Source: Nitrosomonas sp. (GTDB taxonomy: Bacteria > Pseudomonadota > Gammaproteobacteria > Burkholderiales > Nitrosomonadaceae). From it: DNA of 64,000 bases. Below the pieces are notes generated by a model. That model made no database searches. It was not told the origin of the DNA and saw nothing but the letters and a program-made list of their open reading frames with translations. Shown in pieces: positions 8,718 to 60,963 of the stretch. The first letter of the stretch is position 1. Each line of letters begins with the position of its first letter. The stretch is taken from assembly GCA_031316255.1 (NCBI GenBank), contig JALDQW010000001.1, positions 1,767,485 through 1,831,484 on the forward strand, written 5' to 3'. The position numbers were made by a program, and so were the translations under genes.

Positions 8718-10016
8718 ATGACCGCAACAGAAACAAAACAGCATAACTACGCATTGTGGCTGATCATTACGATCACAGTATGGACAACCATTATTTTCAT
8801 GTCCATGTTATGGAATTATCAAAGTGCACAAAGGCAATCAGTCGAGTTGGCATCCAATGTGGCTCAGGCATACATTTACAGAGACATTGCACTGCGGCGC
8901 TGGGGTACTTCTCATGGCGGAGTTTATGTACCGAGAAGTAAACATGTTAAACCAAACCCACTGCTTTCTCACATTTCCGACCGGGATATCATTACCCCAT
9001 CAGGAAGAAAACTCACATTGATCAATCCTGTGCATATACTTACTCAGGTGATGAATGAATATAACGAATTACCTGTGCCCAAAAGTAAAGTAACCGCTTT
9101 TCCTGAGATTCTGCTTAATCCAGAGCAGAATATGCCCGATCAATGGGAATTGAGCGCACTGAACGCATTTAAGAACGGTGCGCTGAGCAAAAAAGAAGTC
9201 GTAAACATAGGCGACACCCCGCATCTTCGCTTGATGATTCCACTGTTCATAACAGCTGAATGCCTGCATTGTCACGCCAGTCAAAACTATAAGGAAGGCG
9301 ATCTTAGCGGTGCGCTGGGAGTTGCGGTTCCCATGACACCCTACTTAAATGCCAAGAAAGAATCTTTAAGCTATATCTATATGAGCTACGGATTTCTTTG
9401 GATTATCGGTATTTTTTCGTTAACTTACTTTTTTAGCAAAACCAGGCTTCACACTCAGCAACTCAAGCTTACACAGAACAAATTGCTCCAATTAAACCAG
9501 GAATTGGAAAATTTATCGTTTAAAGACGCACTGACTGATATTGCTAACAGACGTTCTTTCGACGACGCCCTAAGTCGGGAATGGAAACAGGCAAGACGAA
9601 ACCAGAAACCGCTTTCGTTAATTATGATCGATGTCGATTTTTTTAAAATTTATAACGATTTTTACGGTCACCAACAAGGTGACAACTGTCTGAAAACAGT
9701 CGCCAAAACGTTGGCGCTCGTAGCCAAACGCCCCAAAGACATGGTTGCCCGATGTGGTGGAGAAGAATTTGTGCTGTTATTACCAGAAACAGAATTAAAG
9801 GACGCGATTCAATTGGCTGAAGAATGCCGCGAAAGAATCCAGGCACTCAAATTGAAATTTGAATTATCCGAAATTTCGGATGTGGTCACAATTAGCCTGG
9901 GCGTATGCGCAATAACTCCCCAAAAAGATGACGTGTCCGGATTTCTGCTCAAGGCAGCGGACGAAGCGCTCTATAGTGCGAAGAAAATGGGACGCAACCG
10001 GGTAGAAAGCAGCTAA
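8718..10016 (+). CDS. membrane diguanylate cyclase with a periplasmic haem-c DUF3365 (Tll0287-like) domain
   Basis: Two TM segments flanking a domain with CLHCH; DALTDIANRR, RPKD I-site, GGEEF and AKKMGRNR. Confidence 0.9.
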   Translation: MTATETKQHNYALWLIITITVWTTIIFMSMLWNYQSAQRQSVELASNVAQAYIYRDIALRRWGTSHGGVYVPRSKHVKPNPLLSHISDRDIITPSGRKLTLINPVHILTQVMNEYNELPVPKSKVTAFPEILLNPEQNMPDQWELSALNAFKNGALSKKEVVNIGDTPHLRLMIPLFITAECLHCHASQNYKEGDLSGALGVAVPMTPYLNAKKESLSYIYMSYGFLWIIGIFSLTYFFSKTRLHTQQLKLTQNKLLQLNQELENLSFKDALTDIANRRSFDDALSREWKQARRNQKPLSLIMIDVDFFKIYNDFYGHQQGDNCLKTVAKTLALVAKRPKDMVARCGGEEFVLLLPETELKDAIQLAEECRERIQALKLKFELSEISDVVTISLGVCAITPQKDDVSGFLLKAADEALYSAKKMGRNRVESS

Positions 10017-16672: not shown

Positions 16673-17059
16673 CTATTCAGTTGGTTGTTGTTCAAGCTGG
16701 TTAATTTGATCCATAAGCAGTTGCCGTTCTTCCTCCAGCGCCCGAAAACGCGAATAAAGCTGGTCCAAATCGGCAGTATATTGCTCAATACGATTTTTTC
16801 TTTCCTGTTGACGTTGAATCATATCTTCATATTTTGGAATGGGTGTACTCTCAGCAGTTGCACCGGGAAGATCGGCGAGTGGAGAGCCCAGTACTTCATT
16901 GCGGCGTAATTCCTGGATCATGAGGAACTGCTGGTGCGTTGCCTGAGCGTCCTGTTGAACACGCATTAGCGCTTTTTCCAGTTGAATAATTTGCTGCTCG
17001 CTTTCAGCCCATCCATTGTGAGACGATATCAGTAACAACAATAACACAAGTAATTTCAC
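16673..17059 (-). CDS. exported coiled-coil hypothetical protein
   Basis: GTG start after a GGAGG RBS; signal peptide KLLVLLLLLISSHNGWA; Q/E-rich heptads. Confidence 0.75.
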   Translation of the reverse strand: MKLLVLLLLLISSHNGWAESEQQIIQLEKALMRVQQDAQATHQQFLMIQELRRNEVLGSPLADLPGATAESTPIPKYEDMIQRQQERKNRIEQYTADLDQLYSRFRALEEERQLLMDQINQLEQQPTE

Positions 17060-17080
17060 CGTCTTGACCTCCATTATTTG

Positions 17081-18259
17081 TTATAAGCGTTCGAATACTG
17101 CGGCAATACCCTGACCGCCGCCTATGCACATCGTTACCAGCGCATACCGCCCACCTGTGCGATGCAGTTCATAAATTGCTTTGATCGTCAATATTGTACC
17201 GGTAGCACCGATCGGATGCCCAAGTGCAACTGCTCCGCCGTTAGGGTTTGTTCTGGCCGAATCGAAGTGCAATTCTTTTGCTACCGCACAAGCCTGTACG
17301 GCAAACGCCTCGTTCGATTCAACCACATCAATATCGTTTATATTAATGCATGCACGTTCAAGTGCTTTCTGCACTGCCGGAACTGGCCCCATACCCATAA
17401 ATTGTGGATCCACACCGGCGTGACCGTAAGAAACCAGACGCGCTACTGGGTTCATATTACGCTTCTCAGCCATTTTTCCATCCATTAAAACAATCGCAGC
17501 AGCACAGTCGTTAATACCTGACGCATTACCTGCGGTAACTGTACCGCCCTTCTGGAATACAGCATTCAGTCTGGACAATGCTTCCATAGTGACATTCTCG
17601 CGCGGATGTTCGTCGGTATCGAAAATGAATTCTCCTTTACGGGTCTTAATTTCAACAGGCAATATTTGATCTTTAAAATAACCCTGATGAATCGCGTGAA
17701 TGGCGCGACGGTGGCTTTCAACAGCATACGCATCCTGTTCTTCACGGTTAATCTGCCATTTCTGTGCAATATTTTCTGCGGTTACTCCCATATGCACATA
17801 TTCAAAAGGGTCTGTCAATGCGCCCACCATCATGTCGACTGTGCCGCCGTCTTGCATGCGCTGCCCCCAGCGCAGTGAAGGTAACAGATAGCCGCCCCGG
17901 CTCATGGATTCAGCGCCGCCGGCGACGGCAACATCGGTATCGTTGAGCAGGATATACTGGCTCGCTGAAATAATGGCCTGCAAGCCGCTGCCACACAAGC
18001 GATTTACAGTAAGTGCCGCGGTATGCTGGGGCAGTCCGCCATTCATGCAGGCAACACGCGCCAAATACATGTCCCGCGTTTCGCCGTGAATGACATTGCC
18101 AAAGACTCCATGGCCGATTTCGTCAGGATCGGCTGCAGACCGCCTGACGGCTTCATTGACAACCTTCGCGGCGAGATCTGCCGGCGCGTAATCCTTCAGT
18201 GCGCCGCCATAATCGCCGATTGCAGTCCGTACACCACTGAGAACAACTACTTCACGCAT
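17081..18259 (-). CDS. bktB: acetyl-CoA C-acyltransferase (beta-ketothiolase, BktB-like)
   Basis: VNRLCGSGLQA, NEAFA, GHPIGATG and CIGGGQG thiolase motifs. Confidence 0.9.
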   Translation of the reverse strand: MREVVVLSGVRTAIGDYGGALKDYAPADLAAKVVNEAVRRSAADPDEIGHGVFGNVIHGETRDMYLARVACMNGGLPQHTAALTVNRLCGSGLQAIISASQYILLNDTDVAVAGGAESMSRGGYLLPSLRWGQRMQDGGTVDMMVGALTDPFEYVHMGVTAENIAQKWQINREEQDAYAVESHRRAIHAIHQGYFKDQILPVEIKTRKGEFIFDTDEHPRENVTMEALSRLNAVFQKGGTVTAGNASGINDCAAAIVLMDGKMAEKRNMNPVARLVSYGHAGVDPQFMGMGPVPAVQKALERACININDIDVVESNEAFAVQACAVAKELHFDSARTNPNGGAVALGHPIGATGTILTIKAIYELHRTGGRYALVTMCIGGGQGIAAVFERL

Positions 18260-18371
18260 GCAATTCCTCTATTCGTTCCGTCTACTGGATATTCAGTCTA
18301 TGTTTCTGACGAGTATTTATCATAACTGTCCACTTCTTGCCAAAAAATAGACCGTGTATCATATTTCCTGA

Positions 18372-21149
18372 CTACTTCATTTCGTCAATTAACGGTAGAA
18401 GTTCTTTAAACACCTTGTCAGCTTCATGTTGAAGCGTACCCATTAATTTTTGTGCAGTATCCAATTGTTTTTCGGTGGCGCTTGTTTCCATACATTGACA
18501 TAAATAAGCCAACTGCTCCGCGCCGATATTTGCTGCACTGGATTTTAACGTATGTGCAGTCTGTTTAATGGTCTCGGCATCCCTGGTAACAACAGCCTGA
18601 TTCAATTGGGACAAGGTTCGTGGCGCAGATGTTTGAAAAACCGACAAAACATTTTTTAAAAAATACTTATCGTCATTCGTGTCAAGCGCGCTCAATACAG
18701 CCAGCTTTTCTCTGTTAATCACCATACGATCAGCCGTCAAAGATGATTCATGTTCTGCGACAGCAGCACCTTCTGTTTCCACCTGGCCGCCTTTGCCATG
18801 TTGTGGCAGCCATCGTTCCAGTATGGCGCGCAACTGTGCCAATGAAAAAGGTTTCGACAAAAAATCATTCATTCCGACATCAAGGCACCTTTGCCGATCG
18901 TCTGACAATGCATTGGCTGTCAATGCCACGATCGAGAGATTGCCTCGTTCATCCGGCAATTGCCGAATCAACCTGGTCGCTTCATAGCCATCCATAACCG
19001 GCATTTGACAATCCATAAACACCAGATCATAACGCTTATTTTGCACCATTTGATACGCTTCCTGTCCATTGACAGCAAGCGCTATCTGCAAACCCATACT
19101 TTCCAGCATGGCACATGCAACCTGCTGGTTAACCGGGTTATCTTCCGCTAGCAACACTACGCCTTGCAGATTTTTCTCTTCCGACATTTTACACTTTGCT
19201 TGAACAGACAATTGAGCAGGTGTAACGGCTAAAATATTTGCAATTACATTATAAAGATCACTCTGCCGAATGGGTTTTTGGATAAAACGCTCAATATCTA
19301 TTTCCGGACTACTCTCCAGCTTGTCTTCCATCGTTGATGTCAACATCATCAAGCTGGGCCGGCTAAATTGGGCATCCGATTGAATGGCACGCGCCAATTC
19401 CAGTCCATCCATGCCCGGCATATGCATGTCCAGAATGGCCAGACGGAAAAATATGTGATCCTTGGCAGCCTGTTTCATAATATGCAGTGCTTCCGCTCCG
19501 CCGGGGGCGCAGTAGACTTGCATGTTCCAGCTCGCCAGTTGATTGACCAGAATTTCCCGATTGGTTCGGTTATCGTCAACTACGAGTACGTATACATCTT
19601 TGAAGAGTTGACTATCAGCAATATTGACCACAGGTTTATGGGCTTTGTCTAATTCCAGTTCAACATAGAAACGCGAGCCTTTTCCTGGCACGCTGTCTAC
19701 CCAGATTTGACCATGCATTAATTCAACGAGCAGTTTGCATATCGCCAGGCCAAGACCTGTTCCGCCATATTGGCGCGTTGTTCTGGCATCTGCTTGTGAA
19801 AAATGCTCAAAGATTTTTTTTATCGCATGAGGCTCAATACCAATACCGGTATCTTCTATACATAATCGAATCTTTAATTGTTTTTCTGTTTCTCCCGCAA
19901 TCGCCGTTCGTACAACGACTTCCCCCTTTTGGGTAAATTTGATTGCATTATTGATAAGATTAATGATGATCTGTCTCAATCTGAACGGATCGCCGCGCAA
20001 ATTCATTGGTGTGTTTGGCGGCAAAAATTGTACTGCCAGCTCCAGATTCTTGTCTTTAGCTTGCTGCGCGAACATTGCCACAGCTTCTTCAACAAGGCCC
20101 ACAAGATCAAAATCGGTTGATTCCAACAGCATATAACCCGACTCGAATTTTGAAAAATCAAGAATGTCATTAATCACGCCAAGCAAATGATGGCCGGATA
20201 ACTGTACGGACTCAGCCCATACCCTTTGTTGCGGATTTAAATTGCTGTTTAACAACAGTTCATTCATTCCAAGTACGCCATTCAACGGCGTGCGGATTTC
20301 ATGGCTCATGGTTGCAAGAAACTCACTTTTTGCAGAACTGGCCGCCTCGGCGGCTTCCTTGGCTGTGAGCAGCTCCGCCGTCCTTGCCGCAACCTCAATT
20401 TCGAGCAGTTCCCTTTGTCCAGCCAGGCGTTTTTCGCGGTGACCAATTTGTTCCAGCATATGGTTAAATCCATTGGCCAGCGTATTCAGTTCCACGATGC
20501 AACTTTGATCGGCGCGGATATTAAAATCGGTTTTATCGGAAACCTGTGTAATCAAGTTACTTAATTTGGTTAATGGAATCAAGACAGCCGTATTTAACCG
20601 GTACAACAGTATATGGCTGATCGTCATGGCAACTACTGCGGTAATAAAAATAATAAACGCAAGCCACGCAGTTTGCCAGTAAATCGCGGACAAGCTCGTA
20701 ACCAAATAAAAGTAACCATATTTTTCCTGCTGGAAAAGAATGGGTTGCACCAACTTAATATGATGCAGGGTGATTTCCAGATTCCGAGCAGGCAAGTTAA
20801 ACGTATCGGGAGACAGAGTCCGTCTGGTTTGAAAGCTGGCAAATCTCCGATGTTCCTGTGTAAATACAATCGCGACAGATACATCATCTGAGCTTGCCAA
20901 TGAATTGAGTAATTCCTGAGCTGATCCTGAATCATCGAACACCAGTGAGGCGGCCAAATTTTCAGCAAAAGCGGTTGCCCTGGATTCGTTCGAATTGATC
21001 AAAGATAATAGACTGAGCGTAAAATTGCCAATAACAAGCACGAACGCAACGATAATCAGCGTAATGCCTAACGTCATTCGGGCAATACGCAATAAACGCG
21101 CATTCAACGTTGACTGAGCAATTTTTTTTGAATTATTTTCGTTGTTCAT
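18372..21149 (-). CDS. hybrid sensor histidine kinase (YfiN-like periplasmic sensor-HAMP-HisKA-HATPase-REC-REC-HPt)
   Basis: AASLVFDD sensor motif, [29 protein letters not shown] and [13 protein letters not shown]. Confidence 0.93.
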
Positions 21150-21673
21150 TGGTATACCCGGGCTGCCAAACGGAGCAGTCTGGCGCTCAGCATCAGGCCA
21201 GCATTTCGCGCACTCTTTTGGTTAGCTTCAAAAAATAACTTTTCATGCGCAATTCTCATATTCAGCATAATTCCACGATCAATTGCGCTTTCCGTATCGG
21301 CAATAGTCAGTACCGGGTTGTCGTTGAGTTTCTGAAGAATTTCCGGTAAATATTTGATCGCGTCACTGGATACGAAGACCGCTTCACAATCCAGAAAATC
21401 ATCGGATAGTGCTTTGAATTTTACGGCAACTTGAAATTGATTCACATGACGCCCATCCAGTGAATCAATTTCATCACCAAAAGGATGATTGCCTATCAGA
21501 CAAAGATTGACATCGGAACCAAGATCATTCGGCCATTCGGTATAGGCAATAAAATTGTATACAAAAGCGGCTTTTAAACGGTATTCCGGCAGCGATTCGC
21601 CATTGATGTTCTGACTGAGAAAGACGACGCCCAGAATCATCAGTATCCGCAAAATATTTGCCACTTTTATCAT
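21146..21673 (-). CDS. YfiR family (DUF4154) periplasmic protein
   Basis: [32 protein letters not shown] and LSARLLRLA; stop overlaps the kinase start (ATGA). Confidence 0.9.
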
Positions 21674-22139
21674 GCTTAATGATGGATGATGAAAGAGAAA
21701 TGCATCACTATTCTGAACGAATCACAATATTTTTTACTGCGCTTATAAATTAAGTGTCAGTAGTCCTTACGTTACACCAAATCCACTTGGATATTAATTT
21801 CACACGGCAAATACTATCATATTAATGATAGCCAATAACACTTGATCTTCTGCGATTTTATAAAAGCAAATAGCTGTAGTGCAGACGAACACATTTTGTA
21901 ATTGCAAACACATTAGACGTTTGGATCAACTATTGACGGAAGCAGTTTTAGAAAACCAGCTGACACGCAGTCGAACCTTTACGGTCGGAACAACAAGCAC
22001 TATTTTTATATTGGTTAATATAAAAATATCATTTACAATCATGGACAACTCGTTATAGCTCGATCAGAACACAAGATGTTATCGATTAATTCCCATTTTA
22101 ATCAGAAGCAGTAGCTTACCCGACTATAGTTTAATAGTA

Positions 22140-24164
22140 ATGGCGTACCATCGGCGCTTCACGCTTGCATTTTTCTGTCTTCTCCTGTGGATAGTGCTGC
22201 CAGAGTCAGCCATCGCTCAAAACAAACGTGACGATATCTATGCAATCGATCTTGAAGAACTGCTGAATGTCAAAGTTATTTCGACGAGTAAAAAACCGCA
22301 ATCTGTTTTAAAGTCGGCTTCAGCCATTCACGTCATTTCCCAGGACGATATACGCCGTTCAGGCGCAACGACGTTACCCGATGTTTTTCGCGGCGTACCA
22401 GGTGTGCAGGTCGCCCAGATTGACGCAAACAAGTGGGCTGTGACGATTCGTGGCTTTAACGACCGTTTTGCCCAAAAAACACTGGTCATGGTCGATGGCA
22501 GAACAATCTATACGCCGTTATTTTCTGGTGTTTATTGGAACATGCACGATATGGTGCTGGAGGATATCGACCGTATCGAAATTGTCCGCGGACCCGGCGG
22601 CGCTTTATGGGGTGCAAATGCGGTCAATGGCGTCATCAATATTATTACCAAAAATGCGCGCGATACGCAGGGTACAACTGTCGCATTAATCGGTGGCTCT
22701 CTGGAACGGAACCTGACCGCACGCGTCGGCGGCAAAATCAATGACGACACCAGTTTCCGGCTCTACGCCAAGGGTCGCCACCACGAAAACTACGATCAAC
22801 TGCATGATCAATCAAATTTAGGGCCGGCCAATGACCAATGGCGCAACCTGAATACAGGCTTCCGTATCGACGGTAGTTCGACGCGTAACAGCGACTGGAT
22901 GCTGCAAGGCGGGTATACTGTCGGCACGGCCGGCCAACTGGGCACTTCGACTTCATTAACACCGCCAGCACCGCTCGTTCTCAGGGATACCATCAATTAT
23001 CAGGCCGGAAATCTGGTCTTTCTTTGGAACAAATATGTTTCGGATGATAATAAATGGCGTGTTCAAGCCTATTATGACTACTTCAAGCGCGAGGCCCTGG
23101 GCAGCACCAACCTGGTGCATACTGTAGATCTCGAGATTCAGAATCAACGCCGTTTGTTCAATAGTCATGATGTCGTCTGGGGTATAGGTTACCGCAGCGT
23201 ACTCGATGAACTGGGCAATGATTTCGTGGTTTCCTTCACCCCGTCAAGCCGTCATTACAAAACGTTTAACGCATTTATACAGGATGAAATACAGTTGACG
23301 CAGAAACTGCGTTTTACCGCTGGCACCAAAATCGAACACAATGATTTTACTGGATTCGAATATCAGCCGAATGTGCGTTTATTGTTTGAAATCAATGATC
23401 AACATTCTGTTTGGGCTGCTTATTCCCGGGCGGTCCGTGTTCCGTCGCGTTCAAGCCATGATATACGCATCAATTTCCTGGCTTTGCCGGGTGATACCCC
23501 GAATTCATTGCCATTGTTATTCGGCATCTTTGGCGACCGAAAATTCCGTTCTGAAAATATCAATGCATTCGAAATGGGTTATCGCAGTCTGCTGACACGT
23601 CATTTTTCGGTGGACACCGCATTATTTTTTAACCTCTATGACGACCTGGGAACAAGCGAGAGAAGCGGGCCGATTTTTGAAGCCATGCCCCTGCCGCATT
23701 TGCTGTTTCTCAGCACGGTAGACAATCTGGCAAAAGCAAATACTTATGGCGCCGAGGTCATGACAAAATGGCAGGTTACTCCTTTTTGGCAACTCGCATC
23801 GAGTTATACCTGGTTCAAATTGGACGGACGCTATGTCAAAAACAGCACAGCGGATCTGGAGCGGTTATTCATTCTTGAGAATTCAGATCCGCGTCATCAA
23901 TTCTCGGTACGTTCAGATATTCAGCTGCCTTATAATCTGGAGTTGAACAGCAACTTTTATTACACCGACAGTTTGGCCGGGCGTAATATACAAACACAAG
24001 CACGTCTTGACCTGAGATTGGCATGGCGTCCGTCCCGCAAGATGGAACTCGCTGTTGTCGGACAAAATGTTACCAATAAAACACATCAGGAATTTGATTC
24101 CACTGACGGCATCCCGTCACAAATACCGCGAAGCATTTATGGCAGAATACTGTACACTTTTTAG
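22140..24164 (+). CDS. TonB-dependent outer-membrane receptor
   Basis: Plug motif IDRIEIVRGPGGALWGANAVNGVINIITK; beta-barrel ending in aromatic YTF. Confidence 0.93.
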   Translation: MAYHRRFTLAFFCLLLWIVLPESAIAQNKRDDIYAIDLEELLNVKVISTSKKPQSVLKSASAIHVISQDDIRRSGATTLPDVFRGVPGVQVAQIDANKWAVTIRGFNDRFAQKTLVMVDGRTIYTPLFSGVYWNMHDMVLEDIDRIEIVRGPGGALWGANAVNGVINIITKNARDTQGTTVALIGGSLERNLTARVGGKINDDTSFRLYAKGRHHENYDQLHDQSNLGPANDQWRNLNTGFRIDGSSTRNSDWMLQGGYTVGTAGQLGTSTSLTPPAPLVLRDTINYQAGNLVFLWNKYVSDDNKWRVQAYYDYFKREALGSTNLVHTVDLEIQNQRRLFNSHDVVWGIGYRSVLDELGNDFVVSFTPSSRHYKTFNAFIQDEIQLTQKLRFTAGTKIEHNDFTGFEYQPNVRLLFEINDQHSVWAAYSRAVRVPSRSSHDIRINFLALPGDTPNSLPLLFGIFGDRKFRSENINAFEMGYRSLLTRHFSVDTALFFNLYDDLGTSERSGPIFEAMPLPHLLFLSTVDNLAKANTYGAEVMTKWQVTPFWQLASSYTWFKLDGRYVKNSTADLERLFILENSDPRHQFSVRSDIQLPYNLELNSNFYYTDSLAGRNIQTQARLDLRLAWRPSRKMELAVVGQNVTNKTHQEFDSTDGIPSQIPRSIYGRILYTF

Positions 24165-52179: not shown

Positions 52180-54249
52180 ATGTTTTTCAAAACACAAATT
52201 TTTCTATTACTGCTTTTTCTGATGTTGACTCGAAGTCTGGCCGCAGCGAACAGCACGGATGCGCATGTAACGAAAGATCAAGATATTTTCGCAATGAGCC
52301 TCGAGGAATTAATGAATGTCGAGGTGGTCAGCGTATCAAAAAGATCGCAGCGCTTGAGCGAAGTTCCTTCTGCGGTTTTTGTTATTTCTGGCGAGGACAT
52401 TCGTCGTTCGGGTGCGACAAGTATACCTGAAGCGTTGCGCATGGCGCCGGGTGTACAGGTTGCGAGAATAGGAACAGATAAGTGGTCTATCAGTATTCGT
52501 GGTTTTAACGGCCGTTTTTCCAATAAGCTGTTGGTTCTTATGGATGGGCGCAGCGTCTATACACCGCTGTCTTCGGGCGTCATTTGGAGTCAGCAGGATA
52601 CATTCATTGAAGATATAGACCGAATAGAGGTTGTCCGTGGCCCGGCTGCGACGCTGTGGGGTGTCAATGCAGTCAATGGCGTCATTAATATTATCACCAA
52701 GAAGGCTGAGCAAACGCAGGGCGCACTGTTTACAGCCGGCGGCGGCAGCTTTGAACAGGGTTTTGTCGGCGCGCGTTATGGCGGGAAAATCAATGAAGAT
52801 ACCCCTTTTCGTGTTTATGCCAAAGGATTTATCCGGGACCATACCACAACACTGTCGGGTGCCAGCGCAAATGATAACTGGCATTCCGCAAGGGCAGGTT
52901 TTCGTGTGGATCATGTGCGTGGTAACGATGATTTCACCCTGCAGGGTGATATGTTTGTCAATGGTATTACTGATACTGTGATACCCCCCGTTTTATTACA
53001 ATCGAATTCTAACCCGCATATCATAAATCGCAATGAGACCGGCGGTAATATTCGCTTGCGCTGGGATCGCAGTATTTCCGAGCGGTCCTCGATGATGCTG
53101 CAAACATATTATGACCGTGTGAGTAATCAACTTGCGCCTCAGGCCAAATACGTTGAAAGTTTTGATACCGAATTTCAGCATCGGTTTCCGTTGTTTGACA
53201 GACATGATCTGACCTGGGGGGTGAATTATCGTTTATTCAGTACGAATGCGCGCGATACATTGTTCACTACTTTTGTTCCCCGACAAGCGTCGAACTATTT
53301 TGTCAGCGGTTTTATTCGTGATGAAATCAGCGTGTTGCCGGACAAACTGAAGTTCTCGCTGGGCGTGCGTCTGGGTTATAACAATTTTAGCGGTGTCGAG
53401 GTGCAGCCGAATGCGCGTATTATGTGGACGCCGGATACCCGGAACTCAGTCTGGGCCTCAATATCACGTGCTGTTCGCACGCCTTCTCGCGGAGAACATG
53501 ATGTGATAATTAATAACGGTGTTATCCCGCCTCAGCCCGATTTGACGGGCTCTTCGTTACCCATAATGCAAGCCATTCTTGGGTCGAATCGTTTTGGCTC
53601 TGAGAAGCTGATTGCCTACGAACTCGGTTATCGTCATCAATTTAACACGCATGCGTCTATAGATATCGCCGGTTTTTATAATGACTACAGCGATTTGCGC
53701 GACTTTGAAGTGGGTATGATCAGGACGGTCGCTGGAGCGCATCGCGATCTGATTCTTACGTTACTCCAGCAAGAGCATTTAATGCTGCCGGTATTTTTTA
53801 ATAATCAGGGCTCTGCTCAGTCTTATGGCGCAGAAGTATCCATCGATTGGCGGCCTCATGAGCGATGGCGCTTGCAGGGGAATTACAGCTATCTGGAGAT
53901 CGATACAAAATCAAATCCCGCCTTTGTTGAAATTGATGCTTCTACCGGCGGAGCGGGTAAAGCGAACCCGCGCCATCAAATGTCTCTGAGATCAAACTTT
54001 GATTTGTCCGAAAGGCTTCAGTTTAACCTCTGGCTGCGTTATGTGGATGATTTGCCTTTTTATAATATTTCAAATTATATAACCATGGATGCCAAAATGA
54101 GCTGGAAGCCGGTAAAAAATGTCGAATTTTTTCTCGTAGGACAAAATTTGTTCAGTGAGAATCACCGGGAATCGCAATCAGACTTTATTAATACCGTTGC
54201 ATCACGCATTCCAAGAGGAATTTATACGGGGGTACGCTGGGATTTCTAG
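52180..54249 (+). CDS. TonB-dependent receptor, paralog of 22140-24164
   Basis: MSLEELMNVEV, DIRRSGATSIPEAL and IDRIEVVRGP..LWGVNAVNGVINIITK; C-terminal WDF. Confidence 0.93.
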   Translation: MFFKTQIFLLLLFLMLTRSLAAANSTDAHVTKDQDIFAMSLEELMNVEVVSVSKRSQRLSEVPSAVFVISGEDIRRSGATSIPEALRMAPGVQVARIGTDKWSISIRGFNGRFSNKLLVLMDGRSVYTPLSSGVIWSQQDTFIEDIDRIEVVRGPAATLWGVNAVNGVINIITKKAEQTQGALFTAGGGSFEQGFVGARYGGKINEDTPFRVYAKGFIRDHTTTLSGASANDNWHSARAGFRVDHVRGNDDFTLQGDMFVNGITDTVIPPVLLQSNSNPHIINRNETGGNIRLRWDRSISERSSMMLQTYYDRVSNQLAPQAKYVESFDTEFQHRFPLFDRHDLTWGVNYRLFSTNARDTLFTTFVPRQASNYFVSGFIRDEISVLPDKLKFSLGVRLGYNNFSGVEVQPNARIMWTPDTRNSVWASISRAVRTPSRGEHDVIINNGVIPPQPDLTGSSLPIMQAILGSNRFGSEKLIAYELGYRHQFNTHASIDIAGFYNDYSDLRDFEVGMIRTVAGAHRDLILTLLQQEHLMLPVFFNNQGSAQSYGAEVSIDWRPHERWRLQGNYSYLEIDTKSNPAFVEIDASTGGAGKANPRHQMSLRSNFDLSERLQFNLWLRYVDDLPFYNISNYITMDAKMSWKPVKNVEFFLVGQNLFSENHRESQSDFINTVASRIPRGIYTGVRWDF

Positions 54250-59631: not shown

Positions 59632-60963
59632 TCAATCAATTGTTTGCAGAAATGATTGATTATTGAGTCGAAGTCCGAGTTTGATTAACTCGGTATGCGG
59701 CATGCCGTTTCCTATGAGGTAGCCCTGTACAGCGTCACAACCTAGCGTTTGTAGGCGTTCATAAGTGGCCCGATTTTCTACACCTTCAGCAATGATATGC
59801 AAGTCAAGCTGATGACCTAAATTGATCATCGAACTCACTATGCGTTCGTGAACTGATTGCGTTAACATGTCTTTAACAAACATCTTGTCGATTTTTATTT
59901 CGTCCAGGGGCAATTGCAGCAAGCGCTCCATTGAAGAATAACCTGTTCCGAAATCATCCATTGCCAGCTTGAATCCGATATTTTTGAGTTCGTGCAGCGT
60001 TTCCAAAGAACCGGGTTGATTTTCCATAATGGTTGTTTCAGTCAATTCGATCATGACATTTTCTGGAGAAACTCCCCATATATTCACAGCCTGTTCAATC
60101 AGTTCGACCAGTTCCAGATCGCTTAAATCACTTGCCGACAAATTGACTGAAACACCTGTATTCATACCCGCCTTACGGTATTCTGCGCATTGTCGTAACG
60201 CAGTGTTAAAAACCCATAGTGTCAGTTTGGTCATCAATTCCGTTCCTTCGGCAACATGGATCAGTTTCTCGGGCGGAATAAACCCTCTTGTCGGATGGTT
60301 CCAGCGCAATAATGCTTCAGCCGACCGGAGCTTTCCTGTGGCTGTCCATAATTGCGGTTGATAGACCAGCTGCAGGTCGCCTGTTTCAATCGCGCGGTCA
60401 AGTTCTGACCAAGTATCTATACCGGAAAGAATCTGGTTTTTTTCTTTTTCGTCAAATAATTGAATCGATTCTCTATTGCGTTTGGCATGATGAAGCGCTG
60501 AACTTGCATTACTCATGAGCTGTTTGAGATCACCGCTATGAGTGCTATTGAGCGCGATGCCGATACGCGGCAATAAAGTGATGCGGCGATTATTGAATTG
60601 ATGCGGTTGTGTAAAGATACGTATGATTTTGTGTGCGGCCAGTATTGCGTGATTGGCCGTGAGCAGATCGGAAAACAGACAACAGATCTGGTAACGCCCG
60701 GCCGGGCCGACAATATCCGTAGTGTTCAATGCATCGACCATTTGCTGGATCAACTGGCCGAGTATTTCATCAACTTCTGTATAGCCCAGAATCCCGTCAA
60801 GTGCAGGAAGTCCTTCCAGTTCTACCACTATGACGGCACTGTGAAGATCCGTATTGTTGGCATCGAATAGTGTTTTTGATGCAATACTTAGAAAGTCTTG
60901 ATAGCTATGAATTGTCATGAATTGATTGACCGATATTTCATAAATAGTATTTTTTGATATCAA
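59632..60963 (-). CDS. EAL phosphodiesterase with a degenerate GGDEF domain
   Basis: YQPQ, AEALLRW, IELTE, DDFGTGYSS, KIDK and AEGVE are intact; the GGDEF position reads AGRYQ. Confidence 0.9.
   Translation of the reverse strand: MISKNTIYEISVNQFMTIHSYQDFLSIASKTLFDANNTDLHSAVIVVELEGLPALDGILGYTEVDEILGQLIQQMVDALNTTDIVGPAGRYQICCLFSDLLTANHAILAAHKIIRIFTQPHQFNNRRITLLPRIGIALNSTHSGDLKQLMSNASSALHHAKRNRESIQLFDEKEKNQILSGIDTWSELDRAIETGDLQLVYQPQLWTATGKLRSAEALLRWNHPTRGFIPPEKLIHVAEGTELMTKLTLWVFNTALRQCAEYRKAGMNTGVSVNLSASDLSDLELVELIEQAVNIWGVSPENVMIELTETTIMENQPGSLETLHELKNIGFKLAMDDFGTGYSSMERLLQLPLDEIKIDKMFVKDMLTQSVHERIVSSMINLGHQLDLHIIAEGVENRATYERLQTLGCDAVQGYLIGNGMPHTELIKLGLRLNNQSFLQTID

Follow-up and report, generated by a model that had tools for sequence, protein, structure and literature searches.

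A TonB-dependent receptor linked to a YfiR-like protein and a CHASE8 hybrid kinase in Nitrosomonas: a widespread gene set with a possible YfiBNR-type signalling role

In Pseudomonas, the outer-membrane protein YfiB sequesters YfiR, the repressor of the cyclase YfiN. To our knowledge, no use of a YfiR protein other than this YfiBNR system is understood, and the only well-understood signalling by TonB-dependent receptors (TBDRs) depends on a signalling domain at the receptor N-terminus, an anti-sigma factor of the FecR type and an extracytoplasmic function (ECF) sigma factor. Here we describe a locus of Nitrosomonas sp. in which a TBDR gene stands beside a yfiR-like gene and the gene of a hybrid sensor kinase. 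It lies in a stretch of 64,000 nucleotides (assembly GCA_031316255.1, contig JALDQW010000001.1, positions 1,767,485 to 1,831,484), which as a whole is called the window and to which all coordinates refer. We found that an outer-membrane receptor, a periplasmic YfiR fold and an inner-membrane CHASE8 kinase are inherited together across phyla. By analogy, we suggest that they form a YfiBNR-type signalling system with a TBDR as its outer-membrane component, which is widespread and functionally uncharacterised.

The three genes lie where a first-pass annotation, made from the letters alone, had placed them, as seen from open reading frame (ORF) coordinates and Pfam domains. The receptor (22140-24164, plus strand, 674 amino acids) is TOL_0244-like, of the family that we call type A, with a Pfam Plug at residues 57-165 and a barrel at 209-644. 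It is divergent from the other two genes, as annotated, with 466 bp in between (21674-22139) that presumably hold both promoters. The YfiR-like periplasmic protein (DUF4154, Pfam E 6e-38) is encoded at 21146-21673 on the minus strand and has 175 amino acids with a signal peptide. The kinase follows on the same strand (18372-21149, 925 amino acids), with a first transmembrane (TM) helix, CHASE8, a second TM helix, a HAMP-like region, HisKA, HATPase, REC, REC and HPt (Pfam). The ATGA coupling of these two genes is present: the plus strand reads tcat at 21146-21149, and the yfiR stop overlaps the kinase start.

Compared with YfiBNR (TpbB, P. aeruginosa) and HmsCDE (Y. pestis), the locus has in common a YfiR-fold gene directly upstream of a TM-CHASE8-TM-HAMP sensor, the first YfiR cysteine pair together with the C-terminal partner surface, and a three-compartment logic with an outer-membrane partner. 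However, this partner is a 22-strand TBDR here and the OmpA/Pal-like lipoprotein YfiB there, and the output is HisKA-HATPase-REC-REC-HPt instead of a GGDEF cyclase. Besides, the second disulfide (Cys145/Cys152) is absent here, and the protein stays below the YfiR equivalog cut-off. The lack of a nearby yfiB or OmpA lipoprotein gene held up when we searched with E. coli Pal and OmpA (phmmer), which gave 0 ORFs at E<=1 in the 64-kb window.

The conserved linkage of the genes is the main evidence that they belong together. We anchored one scan on the receptor, using a profile built from receptor homologues (80 genome loci with identities of 36-46%, the best 80 of at least 600 matches), and another on YfiR (89 metagenome loci, the best of at least 600 matches, 58 of them with at least 1.5 kb upstream). 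Domain maps of the loci came from naive ORF calls and hidden Markov models built from the window proteins and their relatives, and many of the contigs were from metagenomes or metagenome-assembled genomes; the percentages describe close-to-moderate relatives, not all DUF4154 proteins. The first-pass annotation had named a lack of conserved linkage as its own refutation; what we found is a YfiR-like gene beside the receptor in 70 of the 78 loci that had sufficient flanking DNA. The full order of receptor, YfiR-like gene and CHASE8 sensor was seen in about 60 of these 78. From the side of YfiR, a TBDR gene was immediately upstream in 57/58 loci (53 co-oriented and 4 divergent), and database look-ups of the gene context with precomputed Pfam domains gave the same arrangement in every case. 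The adjacency of receptor and YfiR is far beyond chance.

The receptor loci span at least 11 phyla: Pseudomonadota, Acidobacteriota, Verrucomicrobiota, Nitrospinota, Nitrospirota, Planctomycetota, Desulfobacterota, Armatimonadota, Bacteroidota, Spirochaetota, and Deferribacterota. The genes are nearly always co-oriented and tightly packed, with a 13-nt overlap of receptor and yfiR in 15 loci and a 4-nt overlap of yfiR and sensor in 13 loci and the window. Wherever the contig allows, a CHASE8 sensor comes directly after the YfiR-like gene, except in about a dozen loci without one. Often, 2-3 tandem receptors precede a single yfiR.

OmpA/Pal-like genes were found in 0 of the 89 YfiR-anchored loci and, incidentally, in 2 of the 80 receptor-anchored ones, and in operons with Pfam-annotated neighbours no inner-membrane transporter or binding-protein gene was linked. 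Among the genes flanking the three in the window, none encodes a FecR-type anti-sigma or an ECF sigma factor. Thus, the idea of a signalling set without a FecR/ECF sigma route agrees with the conserved set, which has neither these genes nor a YfiB-like one. In contrast to FecA-FecR-FecI, FpvA and HasR, there is no STN domain, FecR-type anti-sigma or ECF sigma here, and a soluble YfiR-fold protein together with a two-component kinase would act as the relay.

The gene triad is not a new find, since curators have already recognised it in three paired models of NCBIfam r20: NF053590 (TOL_0244 family TonB-dependent receptor), NF053591 (TOL_0243 family YfiR-like periplasmic protein) and NF053592 (sensor histidine kinase, YfiR-like protein-associated). 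The window has this three-gene architecture, with the genes adjacent, and the best NCBIfam match of each window protein is the corresponding model. However, the window proteins stay under all three cut-offs (600/645, 98/125, 115/194), the window receptor is divergent and not first in an operon, and its YfiR and kinase come from another clade. The models name the proteins and assign no function. Thus, the remark of the first-pass annotation that no functional characterisation was known is right for the literature, where we found no functional study, whereas the architecture itself is already catalogued. Likewise, we found no paper linking YfiR, YfiN, CHASE8 or DUF4154 to a TBDR in this architecture.

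For the YfiR-like protein, gene callers choose Met12 as the start, which gives 164 amino acids vs. the 175 used here. It scores higher with NF053591 (97.9 bits, cut-off 125) than with the YfiR equivalog NF053586, where 45.7 bits against a cut-off of 85 do not support orthology to YfiR proper, and it is 29% identical to TOL_0243. The solved Pseudomonas YfiR in the PDB is matched over its full length (E 1e-5). An AlphaFold2 model with a confidence (pLDDT) of 88 reaches TM-scores of 0.73-0.81 to YfiR structures. The next neighbours of the fold are small substrate-binding proteins (3lft, 5z6v), one of them crystallised with L-Trp, and Li et al. termed YfiR "a versatile periplasmic binding protein" (PMC4655355).

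Pseudomonas YfiR has the cysteine pairs Cys71/110 and Cys145/152 (PMC4655355). The Cys71/Cys110 pair is kept as C58/C96 in the window protein and is invariant in our alignment; the Cys145/Cys152 pair is absent, with I/N in its place. YfiR binds YfiB via the beta7 edge strand, by beta-strand addition, and Met59 of YfiB enters a hydrophobic pocket formed by F151, A164, I169, V176, V180, and L181, a surface that is implicated in YfiN binding as well (PMC4655355). The beta7 strand is conserved (KLFFEAN in the window, RITFEAN in Pseudomonas, with FEAN in common). The pocket of the window protein consists of L137, A150, L162, L166, and L167, where L137/L162/L166/L167 replace F151/V176/V180/L181. Within the wider DUF4154 superfamily (16,525 clusters at 50% identity, E<=1e-3), some proteins of 342-476 amino acids carry two YfiR-like domains in tandem (P0264, P0265, P0294, P0297, and P0332).

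The periplasmic part of the kinase resembles YfiN, as had been noticed: residues 1-260 match positions 2-237 of DgcN/YfiN (E 2.7e-25, 89 bits), and the 13-residue peptide singled out before lies within the periplasmic segment. The N-terminus fits the model 'HK_near_YfiR_like' (NF053592) still better (E 3.9e-33, 114.9 bits, cut-off 194). The CHASE8 domain is at 20703-20990 on the minus strand (residues 54-149, PF17152, E 9.4e-15), and a sequence search of the PDB gave no match for this region. In the cyclase YfiN, it is to this module that YfiR binds. The likeness to YfiN had been extended to a HAMP domain, and this part stands only in a weaker form: Pfam gives no HAMP at E<=1e-3 in the window kinase, while the match to the YfiN model spans the region and homologues do have HAMP.

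On the cytoplasmic side, the HisKA and HATPase_c core (19647-20333, minus strand; Pfam HisKA 273-338 and HATPase_c 386-501 within residues 273-501) has the H-box SHEIRTPLN in its translation. The two receiver domains follow at 18819-19589 on the same strand (about residues 521-640 and 665-777, two Pfam Response_reg stretches). Both keep the acidic pair, the phospho-accepting Asp, the Thr and the Lys, the first as VVDDN...LDMHMP...LTS...QKP and the second as AEDN...MDCQMP...LTA...SKP. The HPt domain (18414-18650, minus strand, residues 834-912, E 1.9e-14) carries the histidine motif. The phospho-accepting His, Asp and His are all present in one protein, as in an unorthodox hybrid kinase. BarA (482.6 bits, cut-off 890) and TorS are nearest for this part, all named kinases stay below their cut-offs, and orthology to BarA, TorS, ArcB or LuxQ is not supported by NCBIfam.

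The window kinase has no GGDEF output domain in Pfam. Since it ends in an HPt domain, a separate response regulator is needed, and the window encodes none: in agreement with the first reading, the only receiver domains within the 64 kb are those of the kinase itself. Two enzymes of cyclic di-GMP (c-di-GMP) metabolism are present in the window, a Tll0287-like-GGDEF protein (8718-10016, plus strand) and a GGDEF-EAL protein (59632-60963, minus strand). Both are without a receiver domain, and therefore neither is an obvious partner of the kinase.

The locus had been described as YfiBNR rewired to a phosphorelay. The kinase output is real, but it is no oddity: receptor-linked YfiR systems comprise at least 55 kinases vs. 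1-3 CHASE8-GGDEF cyclases, so kinases are the rule. The sensors of the receptor-anchored set include 19 plain kinases, 11 HK-REC, 8 HK-REC-HPt and 11 HK-REC-REC-HPt, among others. In the YfiR clade of the window, 29/35 complete sensors are HK-REC-REC-HPt as here, and a REC-(PAS)-GGDEF-EAL gene comes next in 27/35 complete loci. N. marina and Sedimenticola have the REC-PAS-GGDEF-EAL module fused to the kinase. Neither the window nor its nearest relatives L088, L093 and L118 carry the regulator gene. Judging from these neighbourhoods, such kinases most probably have a response regulator with c-di-GMP-metabolising activity as their cognate partner. Since the relay in the clade of the window mostly ends at REC-PAS-GGDEF-EAL, c-di-GMP is probably still the output. 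The linked response regulators of the relatives are mostly REC-GGDEF-EAL proteins that lack a DNA-binding domain, and it follows that the two-component system does not simply have the receptor as its transcriptional target. Together with the lack of linked transporters, this speaks against a receptor that is just a nutrient transporter or just a regulated target. In the metagenome contig L091, a complete operon of receptor, mini-protein (see below), YfiR, kinase, and REC-PAS-GGDEF-EAL lies between flhDC and motAB, a hint of a motility-related output.

The window's copy is mixed in its composition. Its YfiR and CHASE8 are nearest to the clade that normally partners a second, L089-like receptor family, type B (median identity 47 and 38%, whereas those that accompany type A receptors reach 31 and 25%), and its own receptor is of type A. 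This combination indicates that the receptor was exchanged with the N-terminal motif kept, and that the arrangement has been stable since. The divergent layout is shared by L033, L045 (Nitrospinia), L088, L093, L094, and L118. It is held at receptor identities of 94% (L093), 72-74% (L088), 66% (L094) and 58% (L118), with YfiR down to 48%. Thus, by its sequence relationships, we regard the window's copy as a mosaic, regulator-less member of a widespread system.

The kinase is the less constant part. In the syntenic loci L085-L087 (76% receptor identity), the kinase, the thiolase and a 133-amino-acid ORF, which correspond to 16673-21149 of the window, are absent, and receptor and yfiR are intact despite the absence of the kinase. 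This difference is either a natural kinase deletion there or an insertion in the window's lineage. Receptor-YfiR pairs without a CHASE8 sensor also occur in L017, L080, L082, L168, L170, and N. aestuarii. Receptor and YfiR are thus the most persistent core of the set. L168 and L170 consist of repeated TBDR-TBDR-yfiR units without CHASE8, and their receptors are 58-63% identical to a second receptor of the window.

This second TOL_0244-like receptor (52180-54249, plus strand, 689 amino acids) is 39% identical to the first, scores 628.6 bits with NF053590 and is an orphan, with a GT2/PMT_2 glycosyltransferase on one side and glyQS on the other. In L088, a 62%-identical counterpart directly adjoins the receptor-YfiR-kinase module.

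For the first receptor, the closest named homologues are from Nitrosomonas (58-59% identity), and it is 41% identical to Thalassolituus oleivorans TOL_0244 over the first 399 amino acids. It reaches 600.2 bits with NF053590 (cut-off 645), compared to 643.7 for N. marina, 728 for L013 and 650 for L041. Pfam gives Plug and barrel only, with no STN signalling domain, and about 30 mature residues precede the plug. The AlphaFold2 model has a plug and a TonB-receptor-type beta-barrel, with Cir, BtuB and ChuA as nearest structures (TM-score about 0.7). The closest solved relatives (Cir, BtuB, ChuA, and PirA) are only 16-19% identical, and thus no substrate can be inferred from them.

The short N-terminal segment IYAIDLEELLNVKVISTSKK of the receptor (22236-22295, plus strand, residues 33-52) is an amphipathic, clade-specific motif followed by the TonB box. 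The type A consensus is DLxxLSLEELMxxEVTSVSKK, with E39, L41 and K51 invariant, and the AlphaFold2 model places a short helix at residues 38-42. None of the solved TBDRs aligns N-terminal of profile position 50, that is, over the motif. Type B receptors are only about 25-30% identical to type A, and both families pair with YfiR-like genes. They share the motif DLxxLSLE[EQ]L[LM] before the TonB box, DLTSLSLEQLLDVSIVGASK in the type B version. We also considered the motif as a specific mark of YfiR partners and rejected it, since yfiR-less family members and the orphan second receptor of the window have it too.

In type B operons, a conserved gene for a secreted mini-protein lies between receptor and yfiR and overlaps the yfiR start. 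The mini-protein consists of a signal peptide and PYTLEQLLRLPLERLLQLEISPRR, essentially the receptor motif and TonB box in free-standing form. It has about 86 amino acids, belongs to no Pfam or NCBIfam family and forms 23 database clusters of 80-89 amino acids, all named 'hypothetical'. In our loci, the ORFs have 50-90 amino acids (L089:7804-8004, L091:6859-7011, and L092:6790-7011, and also in L095, L097, L101-L103, L105-L107, L115, L120, L124, L129, L131, L136, L141, and L154). It was not found in the window, L085, L088, L093, L094 or L118 with a strict pattern, which also missed the motif of the window receptor. This family mimicking the receptor N-terminus is new and undescribed.

Taking YfiBNR as the model, we tentatively favour, at somewhat short of an even chance, that the three genes make up one trans-envelope device in which the receptor N-terminus captures the YfiR-like protein and thereby takes the role of YfiB. 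As in YfiBNR, the free YfiR-like protein would bind the CHASE8 domain of the kinase, its presumed docking site, and set the default state of the kinase. The receptor would stand in for YfiB as outer-membrane partner. TonB boxes are generally released into the periplasm on ligand binding, and here ligand binding would free the segment IYAIDLEELLNVKVISTSKK, a putative periplasmic docking element, with the peptide DDIYAIDLEELLNVKVISTSKK as a candidate for binding the YfiR-like protein. The freed segment would capture it through the edge strand and hydrophobic pocket used for YfiB and so release the kinase. The signal would then pass from His to Asp to His through the REC and HPt domains of the kinase to a separate response regulator. 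The final output would be c-di-GMP turnover by a REC-PAS-GGDEF-EAL regulator encoded elsewhere in the genome. In its most specific form, motif and TonB box would be a ligand-gated docking peptide, the kinase would be informed by competitive capture of a periplasmic repressor, and the mini-protein would tune one branch of the family; this full version we consider rather unlikely.

Several observations argue for direct capture. Two dissimilar receptor families have the same motif before the TonB box, and the mini-protein consists of little but this motif. In the window's lineage, a receptor of one family could take the place of the other without a change of the YfiR/kinase pair, and 2-3 tandem receptors often feed one yfiR. 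YfiR binds YfiB by strand addition and hydrophobic insertion, and a TonB-box segment could offer both. Moreover, receptor-YfiR pairs persist without the kinase (L085-87, L082, L168, and L170).

Other observations weigh against it. The N-terminal motif is present in receptors without a yfiR neighbour, including the one at 52180-54249, and in this clade it might just serve to present the TonB box to TonB. A dedicated signalling domain is lacking in the receptor, and the relation of the YfiR fold to small substrate-binding proteins would suit a ligand-binding role. In addition, regulator and mini-protein are absent and a 76%-identical relative is without the kinase, so this lineage's copy may be drifting.

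The main alternative, a strong one though somewhat less probable, is that the receptor is an ordinary TonB-powered transporter and that the YfiR-like protein or CHASE8 binds the imported molecule, which would alter the interaction of YfiR with the kinase, with no contact between receptor and YfiR. This would be similar to TorT/TorS and LuxP/LuxQ, where a hybrid kinase with REC and HPt is likewise under the control of a soluble periplasmic partner. It accounts for the synteny about equally well. As in a transporter, the plug, barrel and TonB box of the receptor are complete and a signalling domain is absent. The wording of Li et al. and the fold neighbours 3lft and 5z6v fit a ligand binder, and since no linked inner-membrane transporter was seen, an imported ligand would have its effect in the periplasm. 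However, TorT and LuxP are two-lobe binding proteins, whereas the YfiR-like protein is a single lobe of 150 amino acids; here, moreover, the sensor domain is CHASE8 and a dedicated outer-membrane receptor belongs to the gene set. One YfiR clade works with two receptor families (about 25-30% identity) and with tandem receptors, probably for different ligands, and the mini-protein mimic encoded in the operon is left unexplained.

Expression data from T. oleivorans also fit an imported ligand. TOL_0244 was up sevenfold on n-C28 vs. Tween 80, and TOL_0243 was detected on n-C28 only, at counts that were low and not significant (PMC6304351 and its supplement). This rise on a long-chain alkane is the sole experimental hint of a ligand. 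The authors of the n-C28 study link TOL_0244 to OmpS (B5T_01485), a TBDR of Alcanivorax dieselolei with a stated similarity of 40.3% (PMC6304351), which has been reported to sense alkanes and to trigger chemotaxis (Wang & Shao 2014, as cited in PMC6304351 and PMC9788540). OmpS would be alike in being a TBDR with a sensing and not a nutritional role. Its downstream route differs, being described in these citing papers as chemotaxis proteins. The partial annotation around OmpS has a PepSY-TM protein and an OmpR-type regulator as neighbours.

A second alternative reverses the coupling: the YfiR-like protein, with the mini-protein in type B, would gate the receptor by occupying its TonB box, and the kinase would report free YfiR-like protein, or the pair would work without a kinase. 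The repeated pairs without CHASE8 (L017, L080, L082, L085-87, L168, and L170) are what it would predict, and the overlap of receptor and yfiR genes suggests stoichiometric partners. However, the sensor is directly coupled to yfiR in most loci, and we know of no precedent for a periplasmic protein gating a TBDR by TonB-box occupation. Altogether, we find it improbable. Least probable of all is that the set is decaying or rearranged here, with the receptor a plain transporter and the kinase/YfiR pair signalling independently, if at all: the swapped receptor type, divergent orientation, missing mini-protein and adjacent regulator, kinase deletion in a close relative, and yfiR-less receptors of the family, with the window's second copy among them, would fit, but the three ORFs are unbroken and retain their catalytic residues, relatives at 58-94% receptor identity preserve the divergent pairing, and receptor and yfiR are intact in the relative without the kinase.

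At the level of regulation, the reading of the receptor as a plain Fur-regulated transporter found no support: the 19-bp Fur consensus with up to 3 mismatches has no match in the whole window, which a divergent box could escape. The intergenic region has one weak sigma-70-like site (22005-22032), overlapped by a perfect 12-bp inverted repeat at 22001-22028, TATTTTTATATT-ggtt-AATATAAAAATA, about 110 bp before the receptor start. We rejected this repeat as a conserved operator, since the intergenic regions of L085 and L088 fail to align and do not conserve it. Three metatranscriptomes gave one 217-nt contig on the receptor (22613-22829) and none on yfiR or the kinase, a signal too thin to infer co-regulation of the receptor with the yfiR/kinase pair. 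The window sequence was found only in wastewater and activated-sludge metagenomes.

None of the neighbours of the three genes is related to signalling; they comprise a thiolase, YgfZ and the operon of an alternate F1F0 ATPase. This N-type ATPase operon (25387 to about 31000, plus strand) begins with the beta subunit, whose best match is TIGR03305 (586 bits, below the cut-off of 752), and it adjoins the receptor also in the relatives L085 and L093.

Finally, this gene set is found in nitrifiers, methanotrophs, anammox bacteria, Acidobacteriota, Verrucomicrobiota, Desulfobacterota, and others. If the receptor is the input, the set would be a general route of environmental bacteria from outer-membrane binding to c-di-GMP or phosphorelay output, and it would explain how the 'sensor' receptors of alkane degraders might signal. 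The mini-protein mimic offers a handle on the mechanism, and the system is directly testable in carriers that can be cultivated, among them Thalassolituus oleivorans, Methylobacter marinus, Thiocystis, and Nitrosomonas marina. If the docking-peptide reading is true, it would represent a second, sigma-factor-independent route of signalling by TonB receptors.

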